A stretch of DNA of 64,000 bases from the NCBI GenBank assembly GCA_045105515.1, contig JBGCDR010000045.1, forward strand, positions 1 to 64,000. The letters are read 5' to 3'. Source of the DNA: Oligoflexales bacterium. GTDB taxonomy: Bacteria; Bdellovibrionota_B; Oligoflexia; Oligoflexales; Bog-1112. The notes under the pieces were generated by a model. It made no database searches. It had not been told where the DNA came from and saw nothing but the letters and a program-made list of their open reading frames with translations. The position numbers and the translations under genes were made by a program. Position 1 is the first letter of the stretch, and the number at the start of each line of letters is the position of its first letter. This document shows positions 16,210 through 44,243 of this stretch, in pieces.

Positions 16210-17451
<1,242 letters not shown>

Positions 17452-17746
17452 AATAGCTTGCACCTTATCATAATAAAGTATAATTAACAGCTTTTCTGCA
17501 TAATATGATGACTTCTAAGATACCACTTATGGGTTTATAAAGCGGCTAATTTTTTGAACCTACACGAGGGGCAGTGAGCCAGTCTCGTTTAGAGGTATAA
17601 ATTAATTATTATTTTATAACACCTATTTTTTGTGTTTCACAAGTATTATGTATTCACGGAAATCAAGTTGGTCTAAGTTTGCAACTTAAAGATAATTTTT
17701 GCAAACTCTCCACCTGGAAGTGCGATATTTCTTTAAGTCATGACTT

Positions 17747-20332: not shown

Positions 20333-21853
20333 ATGGCCAAGAATGCACGCAATGCTATCTCACCTTCTCGAGCTGAGAACTATCCAGAATGGTATCAGCA
20401 AGTTATAAAGGCTGCTGATTTGGCGGAAAATGCTCCCGTACGTGGATGCATGGTTATAAAACCGTGGGGGTTTGGAATTTGGGAATTAATGCAGCGTGCT
20501 CTCGATGATATGATTAAGGCAACTGGTCATGTAAATGCTTGCTTCCCTTTGCTAATCCCACTTAGTTTTTTGGAAAAGGAAGCCACTCATGTTGAAGGCT
20601 TTGCTAAAGAATGTGCCGTAGTCACTCATCATCGTCTAGAGGGTGATGGGCAAGGCGGACTTAAGCCTGCAGGTGAATTAGAAGAACCTTATGTGATAAG
20701 GCCAACGAGCGAAACGATTATAGGGCATTCCTATTCGAAGTGGGTCCAATCTTATCGAGACTTGCCAATACTTATTAACCAATGGGCAAATGTTATGCGC
20801 TGGGAAATGCGCACTAGAATTTTCTTGCGAACCTCTGAGTTTTTTTGGCAAGAGGGTCATACAGTCCATGCTACCGCTGAAGAAGCTCAGGAAGAGACCT
20901 TGAAGATGCTTGATGTTTATGAAGACTTTGCGGAAAATTGGCTTGCGGTCCCTGTCTTCAAAGGTCTTAAAACCCCAGACGAACGATTCCCTGGTGCTGA
21001 AGAAACCTATTCTATTGAAGCATTGATGCAAGATGGAAAAGCTCTTCAGGCAGGAACATCTCATTTTTTGGGCCAAAATTTTGCCAAGGCGTCTGATATC
21101 TCTTTTCTTGATCAAGAAGGAAACAGTCAATTTGCATGGACCACTTCTTGGGGGGTATCTACTCGTCTGATGGGGGCCTTGATTATGACTCATAGTGATG
21201 ATGATGGTTTGGTTTTGCCTCCTCGCATAGCACCTTTTCATATTGTCATTCTACCAATTTATAAAAATGCGGAAGACAGAGCTCGAGTTCTTGAGTTTTG
21301 TCATTCCTTGAACAGGGACTTGATAGCACAAAGATTTAATCATGTACCTCTCCGAGTTAGCATAGATGATCGTGATATCCGAGGAGGAGAAAAATCTTGG
21401 CAAAACATTAAAAAAGGGGTTCCTATCCGCCTTGAAGTTGGTCCACGGGATGTGGATAAAAATTCTGTATTTATGGGAAGAAGGGATCGGGCCCCTAAAG
21501 ACAAGGTTTCGATGACTGTGAAACAACTTATTAGTGAAGTGTGCAGCATTTTAGAAACTATGCAGAATGAGCTTTTGCTTAAAGCAAAAGAGTTTAGGAC
21601 AAAAAATACTAAAGTTATAGATAATATCGAGGAATTTGAAGACTTCTTTAGTGCTAGTGATGCCTCTCTTCAAGCTGGATTTGCTTTATGTCACTGGAAT
21701 GAAGCAGCTATAGGACATTCTTTGCTGACAAAATACAAAGTGAGTCCACGCTGCATACCATTTGATAGCCCAGAATTCCCCCCAGAGGCAGGAAGGTGTT
21801 TATTCACTGGTAAAGAAAGTAGAAAACGTATCGTATTCGCTAAGTCATATTAA
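20333..21853 (+). CDS. proS: proline--tRNA ligase, archaeal/eukaryotic-type
   Basis: VRGCMVIKPWG, HVEGFAKEC, RPTSET, FLRTSEFFWQEGHT, QAGTSHFLGQNF, ends FAKSY. Confidence 0.95.
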   Translation: MAKNARNAISPSRAENYPEWYQQVIKAADLAENAPVRGCMVIKPWGFGIWELMQRALDDMIKATGHVNACFPLLIPLSFLEKEATHVEGFAKECAVVTHHRLEGDGQGGLKPAGELEEPYVIRPTSETIIGHSYSKWVQSYRDLPILINQWANVMRWEMRTRIFLRTSEFFWQEGHTVHATAEEAQEETLKMLDVYEDFAENWLAVPVFKGLKTPDERFPGAEETYSIEALMQDGKALQAGTSHFLGQNFAKASDISFLDQEGNSQFAWTTSWGVSTRLMGALIMTHSDDDGLVLPPRIAPFHIVILPIYKNAEDRARVLEFCHSLNRDLIAQRFNHVPLRVSIDDRDIRGGEKSWQNIKKGVPIRLEVGPRDVDKNSVFMGRRDRAPKDKVSMTVKQLISEVCSILETMQNELLLKAKEFRTKNTKVIDNIEEFEDFFSASDASLQAGFALCHWNEAAIGHSLLTKYKVSPRCIPFDSPEFPPEAGRCLFTGKESRKRIVFAKSY

Positions 21854-21886: not shown

Positions 21887-22624
21887 ATGAAACAAGGTAA
21901 AAAAACAATTTTCACCATAAGTATTGTTCTTTCTTTTCTAACGCTTGCAGGCCTAGGCCTACTAATAAGCCTTAGTGGCAGCCAAACTCAAGTACCTTCT
22001 AGGGAGGCACTTGCTGATGTTTGGCAGGAAGTTTACGAGTTATACCAAAAAGATGATTATCAGGAGGCTGAGGCCAAACTATATCCTCACTGGGAAGAGT
22101 TTCCTAGTCTGGAGAATGGTTGCGAACTTATGGTTTCGGTATTTGCAGAGGCTAAAAATATTGAAGCATTAGAACTAGCCTCCAAAAAGTGTATCGAATT
22201 GGAAAAAGGTGGAGACACCATTATTGAGGGTTTAGCCTATAGCTTATCCTTTCAGGGTAAAATTCATGATGGGATAAAGCGACTTGAATATCTTAAAGGA
22301 AGCCAATCTACCCCTCGTCTATTAGTTGCTTTGTCTAGGCTCCATTTAATGATAGGTGAGGATGAGCAAGCAAGAAGCCTCTATCTAGAGGCGATAAGGG
22401 ATGCAGATGTTTGGTCTATGTGGGTGAGTTATGCCCTTAAAGTACCAATATTTGGAGATAACCTGAATTTTATAGAAGATGTGATCAGTATTGTAGTAAG
22501 CAAACCTCATGTGCATGAACAGGTGGAGATGCTTTTGCTAGATAAAGCTGACAGACTTAAAGACAAATTGATATATAAGCAGTTGGCAAAGAGAATCGGG
22601 CATAAAAATATGCACAATAGCTAG
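21887..22624 (+). CDS. membrane-anchored helical/TPR-like hypothetical protein
   Basis: N-terminal TM; TPR-like LSRLHLMIGEDEQARSLY. Confidence 0.5.
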   Translation: MKQGKKTIFTISIVLSFLTLAGLGLLISLSGSQTQVPSREALADVWQEVYELYQKDDYQEAEAKLYPHWEEFPSLENGCELMVSVFAEAKNIEALELASKKCIELEKGGDTIIEGLAYSLSFQGKIHDGIKRLEYLKGSQSTPRLLVALSRLHLMIGEDEQARSLYLEAIRDADVWSMWVSYALKVPIFGDNLNFIEDVISIVVSKPHVHEQVEMLLLDKADRLKDKLIYKQLAKRIGHKNMHNS

Positions 22625-22641: not shown

Positions 22642-23601
22642 ATGCAAGAAAAGAAATCTCTGAATTTTAAGCTAGAGCAAACATTACTCCGTGCAAATGA
22701 AAAAATAGTTGATCAAGATTTTCTGCGCACAAGTTTCTTTATACTTCCATGCAACGATGGGGAAGCAAAGCGTTCCTGTGACATCCTGCTGGGCTTAAAA
22801 GCTCCGTTTATTCATATAAGTCGGCAAAGTTGGGGGGCTACCCTAGATAAAGAGTGGTCCAAGATTTCATGGAACCACCCAAACAGCATTAAAAGGGTGC
22901 TTATTTTCGAAATGCCAGGCCAGAGAAGTGTAGGTTCTGAGATTGAGCTTGAGAGCAACATTGAAAATATGGGGCTAGAGCTAAAAATTATAGACCATCA
23001 TTATTATCGATGGGTTAATCGTTATCAGCAAAAAAGTTCTCTAGAACAGTTGTGTGAAAGTATAAATTGGCCACTTGATTGGACAGACAAGGCAATTGCA
23101 GTAAATGATCGTTCTTACATTCCTGGGATGAAGCAGCTTGGTTTAAGCCAAGATGAAATTATTCAGGTTAGAACATACGACCTCAAGGCTCAGGGATTCA
23201 AACCAGATTACATAGCAGGGCAGATGGCAAAGGCTCCGGAAGTCATTGAACAGTTGCAAAATCAAAAGCGTGGAGACCTTTGGGTTCTGCAAGGAGCTCC
23301 CCTTGAACGTATTTTTATATTGCAGGAGCTTGCACTCCAGAGCCCGTCAGGTTTGAGCCATGTTTTGGAAATAGGGCCTAAAAAATTGAGTTTCTCTGGA
23401 TCACCTCAGGTTGTTAACTGCCTCCTTGGACTTGATTACACAAAGTTTGGGTTTGCAAAGGGCTATACCTGTTATGGAGGTGGAGATGATAGCTTTTCAA
23501 AATTTTGGGGGTTTAGACCACGCTATTCGCACGAGTCGATCAGAAAAAATTTCGTAGAAGAAATGCTTTTACACATTGGCAATGAAATTAAGGTAACTTG
23601 A
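22642..23601 (+). CDS. DHH-family phosphoesterase resembling CRISPR-associated NrN
   Basis: CNDGE, SWGATL, IFEMP, IIDHH, SSLEQ, AVNDRSYIPGM, EIIQVRTYDLKAQG, YGGG...FWG; order and spacing match NrN as I recall it. Confidence 0.55.
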   Translation: MQEKKSLNFKLEQTLLRANEKIVDQDFLRTSFFILPCNDGEAKRSCDILLGLKAPFIHISRQSWGATLDKEWSKISWNHPNSIKRVLIFEMPGQRSVGSEIELESNIENMGLELKIIDHHYYRWVNRYQQKSSLEQLCESINWPLDWTDKAIAVNDRSYIPGMKQLGLSQDEIIQVRTYDLKAQGFKPDYIAGQMAKAPEVIEQLQNQKRGDLWVLQGAPLERIFILQELALQSPSGLSHVLEIGPKKLSFSGSPQVVNCLLGLDYTKFGFAKGYTCYGGGDDSFSKFWGFRPRYSHESIRKNFVEEMLLHIGNEIKVT

Positions 23602-23620: not shown

Positions 23621-24943
23621 ATGGATGAAATAGCATTGTTTAAAGAACACCTGAGGGAACGAGTCGCAAGTTGTGGTGAGGCTCTCGAAGAGCTCCTAAT
23701 ACCTGGGGTCGTTATCAGTGCGGGAATACCCTTTACCTACTTTGCAGATGACCAAGATGCACCGTTTGTCACAAATCCACATTTTTCTCATTGGTGCCCA
23801 CAGCAAGGGCCTTATCATCTACTAATATTTTCGCCTAACAAGAAACCAAAGCTACTACGACACGCTCCAAAGGACTTTTGGTATGACCATAGCCCAAGTC
23901 TTGAAACCTTTTGGCAGTCAGAGTTTGAAATTGAAGAGTTTAATTCCAAGGACGAAATATGGGATCAGCTTGCTCACCATAAGGGCTTTGCATTCATTGG
24001 TCCAGAGGCAGAAAAAGCTCAAGAAAAGAATTTAAAGCCCAATCCGAAAGCTTTCGTTGCCCGCATGGACTGGCTAAGAGGACTTAAAAGTGATTATGAA
24101 CTTAGCAATATATCTATCGCAAATAAGATGGCAGCTAAGGCTCATGGGGCTGCGCGCCAAGCGTTTGCAGATGGGGGCTCGGAGCTTCAAGTCCAACAGG
24201 CATATATGCAAGAGCTTGGCTGTCAAGAATGTGAACTCCCCTATCATAATATTGTAGGCCTCAATGAAAAAGCCGCTGTGCTACATTATCAGTTCAAACG
24301 CAAAGATTCTAAAGGACAAGTCCTCTTGATCGATGCCGGTGCGAGGTATCTAGGTTATGCCTCTGATATTACAAGGACTTATGCGCTTCAAGTGGTTCCT
24401 GGGCCCTTCAAGGATCTCTTAAAGGGCATGGAGCAACTGCAGCAAGAGCTTTGTGGATTGATTTTACCTAATGTTTCTTATCTGCATCTCCATGAGCAGG
24501 CGCATATTAAGATATCTGAACTCTTGATTAAAACCGGTCTTGTCAAGGACATGCAGGTTGATGAATTAATTACTACAGGAATTAGTAAAGCATTTTTCCC
24601 CCATGGTTTAGGTCATATGCTTGGATTACAAGTCCATGATGTTTCAGGGCTCCAAAAAAATGCAGAAGGCGATCCGTGTGATCCAAGTTCCCGCTTTCCA
24701 ACGCTACGTGCAGCTAGAGATCTGCGTGCAAGGGAAGTTATCACTGTCGAGCCTGGATTATACTTTATCCCAATGCTTTTGAACCCTCTAAGGGAAGATA
24801 AGCGGGCTGCTAATCTTAATTGGAAGATGATTGATGCGCTAATTCCTTACGGAGGGATTCGCATAGAGGATAATATTTTCATCCAAGAAGGTTCCCCAAA
24901 AAATATAACCCGCGAATTCTTAGGTAATGATTTTCTGATATAG
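23621..24943 (+). CDS. pepQ: Xaa-Pro dipeptidase (prolidase)
   Basis: DDQDAPF..NPHF, AAVLHY, LIDAGA..GYASDITRT, PHGLGHMLGLQVHDV, TVEPGLYFI, GGIRIEDN. Confidence 0.92.
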   Translation: MDEIALFKEHLRERVASCGEALEELLIPGVVISAGIPFTYFADDQDAPFVTNPHFSHWCPQQGPYHLLIFSPNKKPKLLRHAPKDFWYDHSPSLETFWQSEFEIEEFNSKDEIWDQLAHHKGFAFIGPEAEKAQEKNLKPNPKAFVARMDWLRGLKSDYELSNISIANKMAAKAHGAARQAFADGGSELQVQQAYMQELGCQECELPYHNIVGLNEKAAVLHYQFKRKDSKGQVLLIDAGARYLGYASDITRTYALQVVPGPFKDLLKGMEQLQQELCGLILPNVSYLHLHEQAHIKISELLIKTGLVKDMQVDELITTGISKAFFPHGLGHMLGLQVHDVSGLQKNAEGDPCDPSSRFPTLRAARDLRAREVITVEPGLYFIPMLLNPLREDKRAANLNWKMIDALIPYGGIRIEDNIFIQEGSPKNITREFLGNDFLI

Positions 24944-42605: not shown

Positions 42606-44243
42606 TTAATGAATAACCGAAAAATCACTACCGATTAAAGATAAAGATGTCTGCCCACGCCAAAAATTTCTTCCTGCAGACACTAGAAAATGAGCCTTTT
42701 TTGCAAGTTTCAAATCTTCAAATACTTCATTAAAAAACATGATTTTATATGAGTTCTCGTGTTTGATGCTCACTGCTGTATGCCTCGGTAAGCCAGTTTT
42801 TTTATCGTTATAGAATACGGTTGATTCAATTTCTGCCTCTAGATGGAACAAAGGCTCTTCAAACTGGTGACCGAATGGGCGTAAATGTTCGAGGTGGTCG
42901 GTAAGCGGAAGGTAAAGAAGTTTTTCACCAATGGTAAAATCATAGGAAATGCTACTTTCCCAAAGTTTAGGTTCCTGAGTCTTAATCTTCAGTGCATGCG
43001 ATTCTAGACAGTTCCTTATATTGTCTTCGTTTTGTGAGGAGAAAGAAAATCCTCCAGCAGCACTGTGTCCACCAAATTTGCTAAATAGGTGAGAAGCTGC
43101 TGACATAGCGTCAGTTACATCGAAGCCCGGAATAGACCGTGCTGAACCTTTGCAGAAATCTTCATTTTTCTGAAATAGCCATACCGGTCGCCAAAATTCT
43201 TCGGCTATCTTACTAGCAGCGATACCAACAACTCCTTGATGCCAGTTCCCTCCAAGGAAAAGTACAGGTCTATCGAGGTATGCTTTTGCTTGCTCTCTTG
43301 CTTCTTCTACGATGCTTTGCTGTATAAGCTTGCGTTTCTCATTGCAGATTCCCATATGCCTAATGAGAGGATCCGGGTCACCTTCAATGAAGGCAACGAC
43401 GACTTTGTTTGCATGTTCCAAACGCCCTACCGCATTGATGCGGGGGCCGAGCCGAAAGCCTACATCGCGCTCATCCATGCTTTGGTTTTGGATTGAGGAA
43501 GCTGCGATCAGTTTTTTGAGGACTTGCCGATCACTGCGTAGCAATGCAGCAACTCCATGCTGGGCTAGCTTGTGGTTGACCCCATTTAAAGGCACCACAT
43601 CGCAAATAGTAGCCATGCCGGTTAGTGCTAGAATGTCAGTCCAGACGTTGGAAGTAACTTGAAAGACTTCTCCAAGTTTCCTCAATAGGACAAAGGTAAT
43701 ACCGCATCCACAAAGCTCTTGATAAAGAGGGTCTGGGTGCATTTTAGGATTAAGGATGATGCAGTCTGGCATTTTATCTGCTTGAATTTTATGATGATCT
43801 GTACAGATAAAATCTACTCCGGCCTCCTTGCACCACTTTGCCTCTTCGTTTGCTGTGATTCCCGTGTCCATGGTGATGATAAGTTCAGCTTTTTCTTCGT
43901 GCACTAAGTACTGTACCGCATTTAGGTTGACACCGTAGCCTTCTGCAAAGCGGTCAGGAATATAGTAGGTAAAGTTGTTATAGCCAATACTTTGTAAAAA
44001 CCAGATCCAGCTTACACAGCTCATGGTCCCATCGACATCATAGTCAGCATAGAGTGCGATCCTTTTATTGTTTTTGATAGCTTTTAAAAGGGTGTTGAAG
44101 GCGGCTGTTAAGCCATAGTCTCCGTACTTTAGCTGGTCTATCTCGGTAAATGCCCTGTTCTGACAAATTTGGAGGGTTAACTCGTTGTAATTTTGTGGAT
44201 TTATTGAAGCTCGTGGCTTCCAGTGTTTAAATCGGTAACCCAT
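42606..44243 (-). CDS. recJ: ssDNA-specific exonuclease RecJ
   Basis: DYDVDG, EGYG, MDTG, TDHH, TICDVVPL, PRINAVGRL, GSARS, GGH. Confidence 0.93.
   Translation of the reverse strand: MGYRFKHWKPRASINPQNYNELTLQICQNRAFTEIDQLKYGDYGLTAAFNTLLKAIKNNKRIALYADYDVDGTMSCVSWIWFLQSIGYNNFTYYIPDRFAEGYGVNLNAVQYLVHEEKAELIITMDTGITANEEAKWCKEAGVDFICTDHHKIQADKMPDCIILNPKMHPDPLYQELCGCGITFVLLRKLGEVFQVTSNVWTDILALTGMATICDVVPLNGVNHKLAQHGVAALLRSDRQVLKKLIAASSIQNQSMDERDVGFRLGPRINAVGRLEHANKVVVAFIEGDPDPLIRHMGICNEKRKLIQQSIVEEAREQAKAYLDRPVLFLGGNWHQGVVGIAASKIAEEFWRPVWLFQKNEDFCKGSARSIPGFDVTDAMSAASHLFSKFGGHSAAGGFSFSSQNEDNIRNCLESHALKIKTQEPKLWESSISYDFTIGEKLLYLPLTDHLEHLRPFGHQFEEPLFHLEAEIESTVFYNDKKTGLPRHTAVSIKHENSYKIMFFNEVFEDLKLAKKAHFLVSAGRNFWRGQTSLSLIGSDFSVIH

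Follow-up and report, generated by a model that had tools for sequence, protein, structure and literature searches.

In this work, we present the analysis of a gene located in a 64,000-nucleotide stretch of DNA from an Oligoflexales bacterium (positions 1 to 64,000 of contig JBGCDR010000045.1, assembly GCA_045105515.1; the whole stretch is further called the window). Its 319-amino acid product is a relative of NrN, the enzyme described by Chi et al. 2023 (PMC10600005) as degrading the CRISPR messenger S-adenosylmethionine-AMP (SAM-AMP), and the gene represents a CRISPR-free variant of the NrN family, previously undescribed in the literature that we found. In the passages which concern them, NrN and related DHH proteins are treated only as CorA-linked CRISPR accessories, both in the paper cited above and in the SAM-AMP lyase paper (PMC12255297), Hoikkala et al. 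2024 (PMC11229360), the CRISPRicity preprint (10.1101/270033), the 2025 CRISPR classification (PMC12669027) and the III-D2 paper (PMC13294483). Full-text searches returned no description of CRISPR-independent NrN homologues. The gene and its main motifs, the latter located by motif scan and homologue alignment, are listed below.

22642..23601 (stop codon included), + strand: NrN-like phosphodiesterase of DHH/DHHA1 fold, long form, 319 amino acids, ATG start
22756..22764, + strand: D39-G-E41 (DGE, residues 39-41), corresponding to D-L-E of Bacteroides fragilis NrN in the profile alignment
22993..23001, + strand: D118-H119-H120, the DHH catalytic motif (within IDHH, residues 117-120), corresponding to NrN D85/H86/H87
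23035..23049, + strand: S132-S-L-E-Q136 (SSLEQ), which is SALEQ in B. fragilis NrN and is kept in both halves of the family
23104..23130, + strand: N155-D156-R-S-Y-I-P-G-M163 (NDRSYIPGM), in which D156 corresponds to NrN D119
23473..23487, + strand: Y278-G-G-G-D282, glycine-rich, in the C-terminal DHHA1-like domain

Further motifs of the protein are WGA (residues 64-66), EIIQVRTYDLKAQG (172-185), YGGG (278-281) and FWG (288-290). The region of Y278-G-G-G-D282 reads GGD in the half of the family formed by the long forms and is more variable in the CRISPR-linked half. In the alignment of 55 homologues the columns P36, N38, D39, E41, S60, Q62, G65, A66, E90, P92, E104, D118, H119, H120, Y122, E135, Q136, D156 and G281 are invariant, so the listed motifs are signatures of the family and chance is excluded. 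The open reading frame and every motif named in the original prediction, which had been made from the nucleotide sequence, are thus in place. No signal peptide was recognised in the protein by a hydropathy test.

Pfam assigned no family to the protein at E<=1, DHH (PF01368) and DHHA1 (PF02272) included, and NCBIfam gave nothing meaningful. A phmmer search of the Protein Data Bank (PDB) returned four NrN entries as the only significant matches (9lq9, E 7.7e-9), and a profile built from the 55 homologues reached NrN with E 5e-17, its positions 21-246 being aligned with 5-208 of the 260 of NrN; the next DHH proteins in this profile search, of the NrnA type, followed with E of about 0.9. The PADLOC model DHH_CorA, which describes CorA-associated DHH hydrolases, matched the protein with E 1.1e-12 over model positions 57-139 of 245 only. 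An AlphaFold2 model, built on the same alignment of 55 homologues, had a predicted local distance difference test score (pLDDT) of 95.4 and a predicted template modelling score (pTM) of 0.92. Foldseek placed the NrN entries first (E 9e-14, target TM 0.75), followed by DhhP (E 3e-6, TM 0.41) and by TM1595, GdpP and RecJ at E 3e-6 or worse. Aligned by VIA-align with ligand-bound NrN, the model gave Z of 21.6-21.7 and a root mean square deviation of 3.3 A over 248-249 of 251-252 residues at 24% identity, with apo NrN at Z 16.4 and the next DHH protein at Z 12.4. The model therefore reproduces the fold of the whole NrN chain, a compact DHH domain with a DHHA1-like domain of about 250 residues together. 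As originally proposed, NrN turned out to be the family match: it is the best and sole significant solved relative by both sequence and fold, in agreement with PADLOC, and the generic DHH proteins of the NrnA or RecJ type, the best match with which would have spoken against this identity, are far weaker.

The PDB alignments made it possible to follow the catalytic residues, taking into account that the chain index there equals the native NrN number plus 1 (the DHH motif lies at chain positions 86-88 and is D85/H86/H87 in Chi et al.). E21 of NrN corresponds to E41 of the window protein, D85-H86-H87 to D118-H119-H120 and D119 to D156, and all of these residues are invariant in 55/55 homologues. 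The B. fragilis NrN variant D85A/H86A/H87A is described as inactive in PMC10600005, while the roles of E21 (mutated in 9lqa and 9lqb) and D119 (mutated in 9lqc) were taken from the titles of the PDB entries, in which the mutations serve to trap the substrate. The CRISPR-linked and the CRISPR-free half of the family do not differ in the motif columns around the active site (PxNDxE, SxQxxGAxL..E, ExP, IDHHxY, SSLEQ, the D of NDR, and GG). Judged by these residues, the protein is very likely catalytically active; an inactive or decayed protein is very unlikely, because all known catalytic residues of NrN are kept, and in 55/55 homologues.

The source genome (6.29 Mb, 461 contigs, 90.9% complete) carries one NrN-like gene. 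The genomic link of the NrN family to corA and a type III CRISPR locus with Cas10 was not found in it. No Cmr2 and no RAMPs were detected in the assembly, and no CorA was found with either Pfam PF01544 or the PADLOC model of CRISPR-type CorA. The latter search was added because PF01544 proved to be a poor probe, missing three genuine CRISPR-type CorA proteins which PADLOC recognised with E 1e-77 to 1e-99. The only match to the Csm1 model (29 bits) belongs to RNase Y, and the only match to the Cas1 model (11.8 bits) to an ABC-transporter accessory protein; 10 regularly spaced repeat candidates for CRISPR arrays were all plain tandem repeats devoid of unique spacers. As a separate observation, the source genome is devoid of any CorA-family Mg2+ transporter detectable with PF01544 or the PADLOC CorA model, and the same models match 13-14 of 14 control genomes. 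The PADLOC CorA model alone matches 13/14 of them, presumably through their ordinary CorA. Among the nine other carriers of the gene, two of which are single contigs, RAMPs, which served there as a proxy since Cas10 was searched only in the source genome, were present in 0/9, and full matches to the PADLOC CorA model likewise in 0/9, with one weak match of the membrane part in a 299-amino acid frame of genome G039. The orphan character of the gene, claimed at the outset, was therefore borne out: no type III CRISPR-CorA system was detected in the assembly, no cas10-corA locus was found elsewhere in the assembled genome to account for it, and RAMPs were not found in the nine other carriers either.

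A word-indexed search yielded 56 homologues, about 40 of which are full-length (290-379 amino acids), all named 'hypothetical' and labelled mostly as Oligoflexales or Oligoflexia metagenome-assembled genomes (MAGs), with single Delta-, Zeta- and Pseudomonadota; after these long proteins the list drops to proteins of 252-281 amino acids. Scanning of species genomes gave 17 loci, comprising 12 long forms (11 from Bdellovibrionota-type MAGs and 1 from a MAG labelled Pseudomonadota) and 5 short forms, which come from Candidatus Brocadia and from a Nitrospirae MAG. Flanks were usable in four of the short-form loci. In L030, L032 and L033, NrN immediately follows Cmr3/RAMP/Cmr5 genes together with a gene of the CorA type (the PADLOC matches of E 1e-77 to 1e-99 mentioned above), and L029 has a membrane CARF gene (Csx1-like) in the position of CorA; these short forms are canonical CRISPR NrNs. 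Near the long-form loci examined neither cas nor corA was found. The long forms make up a subfamily distinct from the CorA-linked NrNs: about 25 residues are added at the N-terminus, a short insert is present and the C-terminus is extended.

An exhaustive profile search collected 974 proteins at E<=1e-3, 156 of them at E<=1e-30. In a FastTree phylogeny of 166 domain rows the midpoint splits the family into two halves with support of 94. The Brocadia and Nitrospirae proteins fall in the CRISPR half, as do the short stand-alone proteins and each of the 18 CorA fusions that the tree includes; every CorA fusion and every NrN adjacent to Cmr-CorA is on this side. The window protein lies in the other half, together with the long stand-alone forms of 300-380 amino acids, which have varied housekeeping neighbourhoods, all 7 Macro/esterase fusions and further fusions, kinase-like ones included; some of its members bear signal peptides. 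IQ-TREE (LG+C20) recovered the same split from 74 chosen rows, with a Shimodaira-Hasegawa-like approximate likelihood ratio test (SH-aLRT) support of 88. When the labels of 13 CorA-linked rows and 13 rows of non-CorA context or Macro/esterase fusion, classes set from biology and independently of the first tree, were placed on this tree, a single change was enough, on a branch with SH-aLRT of 94, and 0/500 shuffles were as low. The existence of two separate branches, CRISPR-linked and CRISPR-free, is thus supported, in trees that are unrooted.

Fusion partners also differ between the halves. Among the 62 stored homologues of at least 385 amino acids, 31 are NrN-CorA fusions. A Pfam domain scan, which covered 24 of the 62, found a Macro domain in six (P0058, under the cut-off, P0060, P0063, P0066, P0070 and P0125) and an alpha/beta-hydrolase domain in three (P0064, P0066 and P0070); in a Bdellovibrio-labelled MAG (L026) such a Macro and/or alpha/beta-hydrolase fusion involves a long-form NrN. 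The fused Macro domain is MacroD/YmdB-like, with DR_2288 as the best match (E 1.5e-11) and O-acetyl-ADP-ribose deacetylases next. In P0060, P0063, P0066 and P0070, and in L026:70-1476, this domain is circularly permuted, as the segment with the 'IVNAAN...GGGV' motif, normally N-terminal, stands after the rest of the domain: relative to DR_2288, query 169-196 corresponds to chain 16-43 and query 26-147 to chain 53-170. A sister clade of the long form (P0101, P0114, P0117, P0143, P0168, P0169, P0182 and P0184) carries an N-terminal domain of about 350 amino acids with no Pfam match, for which atlas searches gave weak leads to the atypical kinases LepB_N, HipA_2 and actin-fragmin kinase, all with a score of 0.91; several of its members begin with signal-peptide-like segments. 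P0109 and P0057 contain three NrN-like stretches per polypeptide.

Taking these results together, we propose that the product of the gene is a metal-dependent phosphodiesterase of the long-form NrN subfamily, cytoplasmic and catalytically intact, with no link to type III CRISPR or CorA, which would perform NrN-like cleavage of a small adenosine conjugate in a turnover role; we assign this reading a probability of about 0.6. The enzyme would bind a small adenosine-containing conjugate and, in a metal-dependent manner, cut the 3'-O-P bond of an adenosine-type nucleoside with a bulky 5' substituent, releasing a 5'-nucleotide (AMP). The same chemistry as that of NrN is suggested by the active-site motif columns, which do not change between the two halves of the family. 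The substrate could be SAM-AMP or, more likely, a related adenosine-ribose ester. The close relatives fused to esterase domains and to MacroD-type domains, which handle ADP-ribose, suggest that the substrates are small-molecule esters of the adenosine or ADP-ribose type. Such an enzyme would act in turnover or clean-up, being co-transcribed with ordinary metabolic genes outside any immune module.

Several observations weigh against this proposal. The assembly is divided into 461 contigs and CRISPR arrays often remain unassembled, Cas10 was searched in the source genome alone, with RAMPs as a proxy in other carriers, and the support for the split in the trees is moderate (88-94, not starred), with no root. 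The gene is present in only 10/131 genomes of the phylum, the source genome included. For every long-form member, the proposed substrate is deduced from homology and the fusions, and searching the source genome for the fused Macro module with one query found nothing. None of the neighbours is kept as an operon partner from family to family, so the neighbourhood gives no pathway. Finally, signal-peptide-like N-termini occur in 14/78 long-form rows versus 2/78 rows of the CRISPR half, so the long-form subfamily need not have a single cellular role.

In the window the gene belongs to a same-strand run with proS, a gene for a tetratricopeptide repeat (TPR)-like protein and pepQ, followed by fliM, guaB and guaA. 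The adjacent genes are as follows:

20333-21853, + strand: proS (Pfam tRNA-synt_2b, HGTP_anticodon and ProRS-C_1)
21887-22624, + strand: 245-amino acid TPR-like protein with one N-terminal hydrophobic segment, as read from the sequence, and weak Pfam TPR matches
23621-24943, + strand: pepQ, Xaa-Pro dipeptidase (NF010133, 471.9 bits versus a cut-off of 339)

The TPR matches of the upstream protein have E of 0.05-0.13, every one under the Pfam cut-offs, and searches of PADLOC and NCBIfam with it gave no match. The gaps between proS, the TPR-like gene, the NrN-like gene and pepQ are 33, 17 and 19 nucleotides, as originally noted. Shine-Dalgarno-like sequences AGGAG, AGGG and AGGAGG precede the starts of the TPR-like gene, the NrN-like gene and pepQ, respectively, and promoter- or terminator-like sites in the three gaps did not exceed the shuffled expectation. 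Because of the short gaps, the Shine-Dalgarno-like sites and the lack of surplus promoter- or terminator-like sites, the run is compatible with a single transcript, which is unproven. Elsewhere in the window a coding tandem repeat at 16252-16548 (period of 27/54 nucleotides, about 7 copies, 80-85% match) sits within a 417-amino acid open reading frame (16210-17463, - strand) without a Pfam family.

The NrN-like gene was found in 7/41 nearest genomes. Divided by family, its own family (f1) has it in 3/15 other genomes, f5 in 4/4 and f15 in 2/22, with 0 in 16 other families; such patchy presence is easier to reconcile with an accessory role than with core metabolism. The neighbourhoods of the gene in other genomes are as follows:

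G001 (same genus): full synteny with the window, TPR-like homologue of 77% identity, proS adjacent, pepQ downstream
G003: proS overlapping the NrN-like gene, then two ankyrin proteins
G006: membrane protein (29% identical to the TPR-like protein), NrN-like gene, glutathione reductase, pepQ, fliM
G019, G034, G055: GloB-like hydrolase directly upstream, the reading frames overlapping
G056: PGI
G039: aconitase on one side, HigB toxin-antitoxin pair on the other side
G060 / L018: 3'-5' exonuclease, DUF4301
Other MAGs: ThrRS, inositol monophosphatase, trypsin-like protease and others

In the MAG locus L024 the gene stands tail-to-tail (convergent) with a gene of the inositol-monophosphatase family. 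The only long form with a defence-like neighbour is that of L025, from the MAG labelled Pseudomonadota, which lies beside an AbiU/AIPR abortive-infection gene. In this locus (L025:3165-7518) the long form overlaps the end of a gene for a 533-amino acid protein (P0200), both standing after the AbiU/AIPR gene; P0200 has no PDB relative and no PADLOC match, and its Pfam Peptidase_S10 match (17.6 bits) is under the cut-off of 21.9. It was also observed that a glutathione-related gene abuts or overlaps the NrN-like gene in 4/9 other carriers: L014:8700-10061 (G006), L015:7322-8062 (G019), L016:6922-7854 (G034) and L045:5580-6374 (G055). The glutathione reductase of G006 scores 554 bits versus a cut-off of 480, and the GloB-like hydroxyacylglutathione hydrolase of G019, the only one scored of the three f5 genomes, 170.6 bits, under the cut-off of 200.8. 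This adjacency may be due to chance or may hint at a link to thiols. No homologue was present among 50,697 phage records, and plasmid matches were confined to Arcobacter NrN-CorA fusions and one Haliscomenobacter gene.

The original prediction had suggested that the upstream membrane TPR protein might be a partner of the enzyme, which the comparison of loci did not support. BLASTP with the TPR-like protein finds a homologue beside the gene in 2/6 loci of relatives (G001 and G006) and none in those of G003, G039, G019 and G034; in the remaining long-form loci scanned with Pfam no TPR family stands directly beside the gene, although response-regulator-TPR proteins are encoded some genes off in L014 and L018. 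The whole gene order is kept in G001, in G006 glutathione reductase is placed between the gene and pepQ, and the TPR-NrN-pepQ linkage is not conserved otherwise. As adjacency varies between loci, the TPR-like protein is not a conserved partner, nor are proS and pepQ. A complex of the enzyme with the TPR-like protein is accordingly very improbable. It is suggested by the 17-nucleotide gap on the same strand, the Shine-Dalgarno-like site before the start and the recurrence of the pair in G001 and, at 29% identity, in G006, but the homologue is lacking in four loci, the other long forms are flanked by proS, a GloB-like hydrolase, PGI, aconitase and others, and the TPR assignment itself is under the Pfam cut-offs. 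Even less credible is the reading that this is an accessory gene displaced from a CRISPR system of type III-B/CorA, which itself would lie elsewhere in the genome, possibly in its unassembled part. CRISPR loci are often fragmented in assemblies of this kind, 90.9% complete and in 461 contigs; still, no Cas10, RAMP, Cas1, CorA or CRISPR array is found in this one, RAMPs were found in none of the nine other carriers, two of them single contigs, the protein stands apart from all CorA-linked NrNs in the trees, and the genome of the same genus has an identical gene order.

Two further explanations concern the role of the enzyme. It might be a housekeeping nanoRNase or pAp phosphatase which replaces NrnA and acts on di- or oligoribonucleotides or 3'-phosphoadenosine 5'-phosphate. 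We consider this quite unlikely, even though the gene lies among housekeeping genes, the L024 copy is convergent with an inositol-monophosphatase-family gene, and RecJ is the only canonical Pfam DHH (PF01368) protein of the source genome, in which no NrnA type was found. (RecJ is encoded in the window itself, at 42606-44243 on the - strand, with a TIGR00644 score of 366.9 bits, slightly under the cut-off of 396.9.) The role of oligoribonuclease is already filled, because the source genome encodes Orn (NF003765, 241 bits versus a cut-off of 106); B. fragilis NrN, as described in PMC10600005, leaves pApA and cA2-cA6 uncut, the active-site motif columns are those of CRISPR NrN, Pfam DHH and DHHA1 fail to match the protein even at E<=1, and a gene carried by only 10 of the 131 genomes hardly suits such a function. 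Alternatively, the protein could be a part, so far unrecognised, of a signalling, defence or counter-defence system, removing a SAM-AMP-like or ADP-ribose-derived signal or toxin produced by an equally unrecognised synthase, by competitors, prey or phages. The patchy, accessory-like distribution would suit it, as would the active-site motifs shared with the SAM-AMP-degrading NrN, the relatives fused to modules of the MacroD, esterase and atypical-kinase-like types, many of which bear signal peptides, and the overlap with the 533-amino acid gene next to AbiU/AIPR in L025. This explanation is nevertheless unlikely: apart from L025, no defence gene is found near the window copy or the other long forms examined, homologues are absent from the phage records, plasmid matches are only the Arcobacter fusions and the Haliscomenobacter gene, the window protein has no signal peptide by hydropathy and no candidate synthase was found.

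We therefore favour a stand-alone, cytoplasmic turnover enzyme of the long-form NrN subfamily. The existence of a large, conserved CRISPR-free branch with the same active site raises two possibilities: SAM-AMP-type conjugates or their chemical cousins may occur in ordinary bacterial physiology, or CRISPR systems may have taken NrN from this long-form branch, which would be a candidate source. A broader and rather doubtful idea is that SAM-AMP-like adenosine conjugates, in which the 3'-OH of the ribose bears a nucleotide, or related esters of ADP-ribose occur independently of type III CRISPR, and that the CRISPR-free NrN branch is specialised in their removal, by cytoplasmic stand-alone enzymes and by exported fusions (permuted MacroD, esterase, kinase-like) in Bdellovibrio-like bacteria. 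If true, it would mean an undiscovered metabolism or signalling based on nucleotide conjugates, possibly in interactions between bacteria. The window protein is a concrete and easily expressed probe for new nucleotide conjugates, for which the Macro/esterase fusions provide a chemical hint.

Compared with known systems, the window protein resembles B. fragilis NrN (PMC10600005) in the two-domain fold over the whole NrN chain, the same catalytic residues and the common SSLEQ, ND..YIPG and AQG motifs. It exceeds that enzyme by about 60 residues and has a helical extension at the N-terminus, an insert around residues 93-103 and additional C-terminal length. It differs also in the lack of detectable corA, cas10 or RAMP in its assembly and in belonging to a separate half of the family tree. 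The nearest proteins outside the long-form group are the CorA-adjacent NrNs of Candidatus Brocadia and the Nitrospirae MAG (L029-L033), with 31-37% identity over about 260 residues. All motif columns are common to these proteins, to the NrN-CorA fusions, e.g. those of Arcobacter plasmids, and to the window protein, yet the Brocadia and Nitrospirae NrNs are 272-297 amino acids long and, in L030, L032 and L033, belong to Cmr-CorA loci, and no long-form row is fused to CorA. NrnA, GdpP, PggH, DhhP and RecJ share with the window protein the DHH superfamily fold and the metal-binding DHH motif (Z of 7-12), but they are far more distant relatives (profile E of about 0.9; Foldseek E 3e-6 or worse) than NrN.

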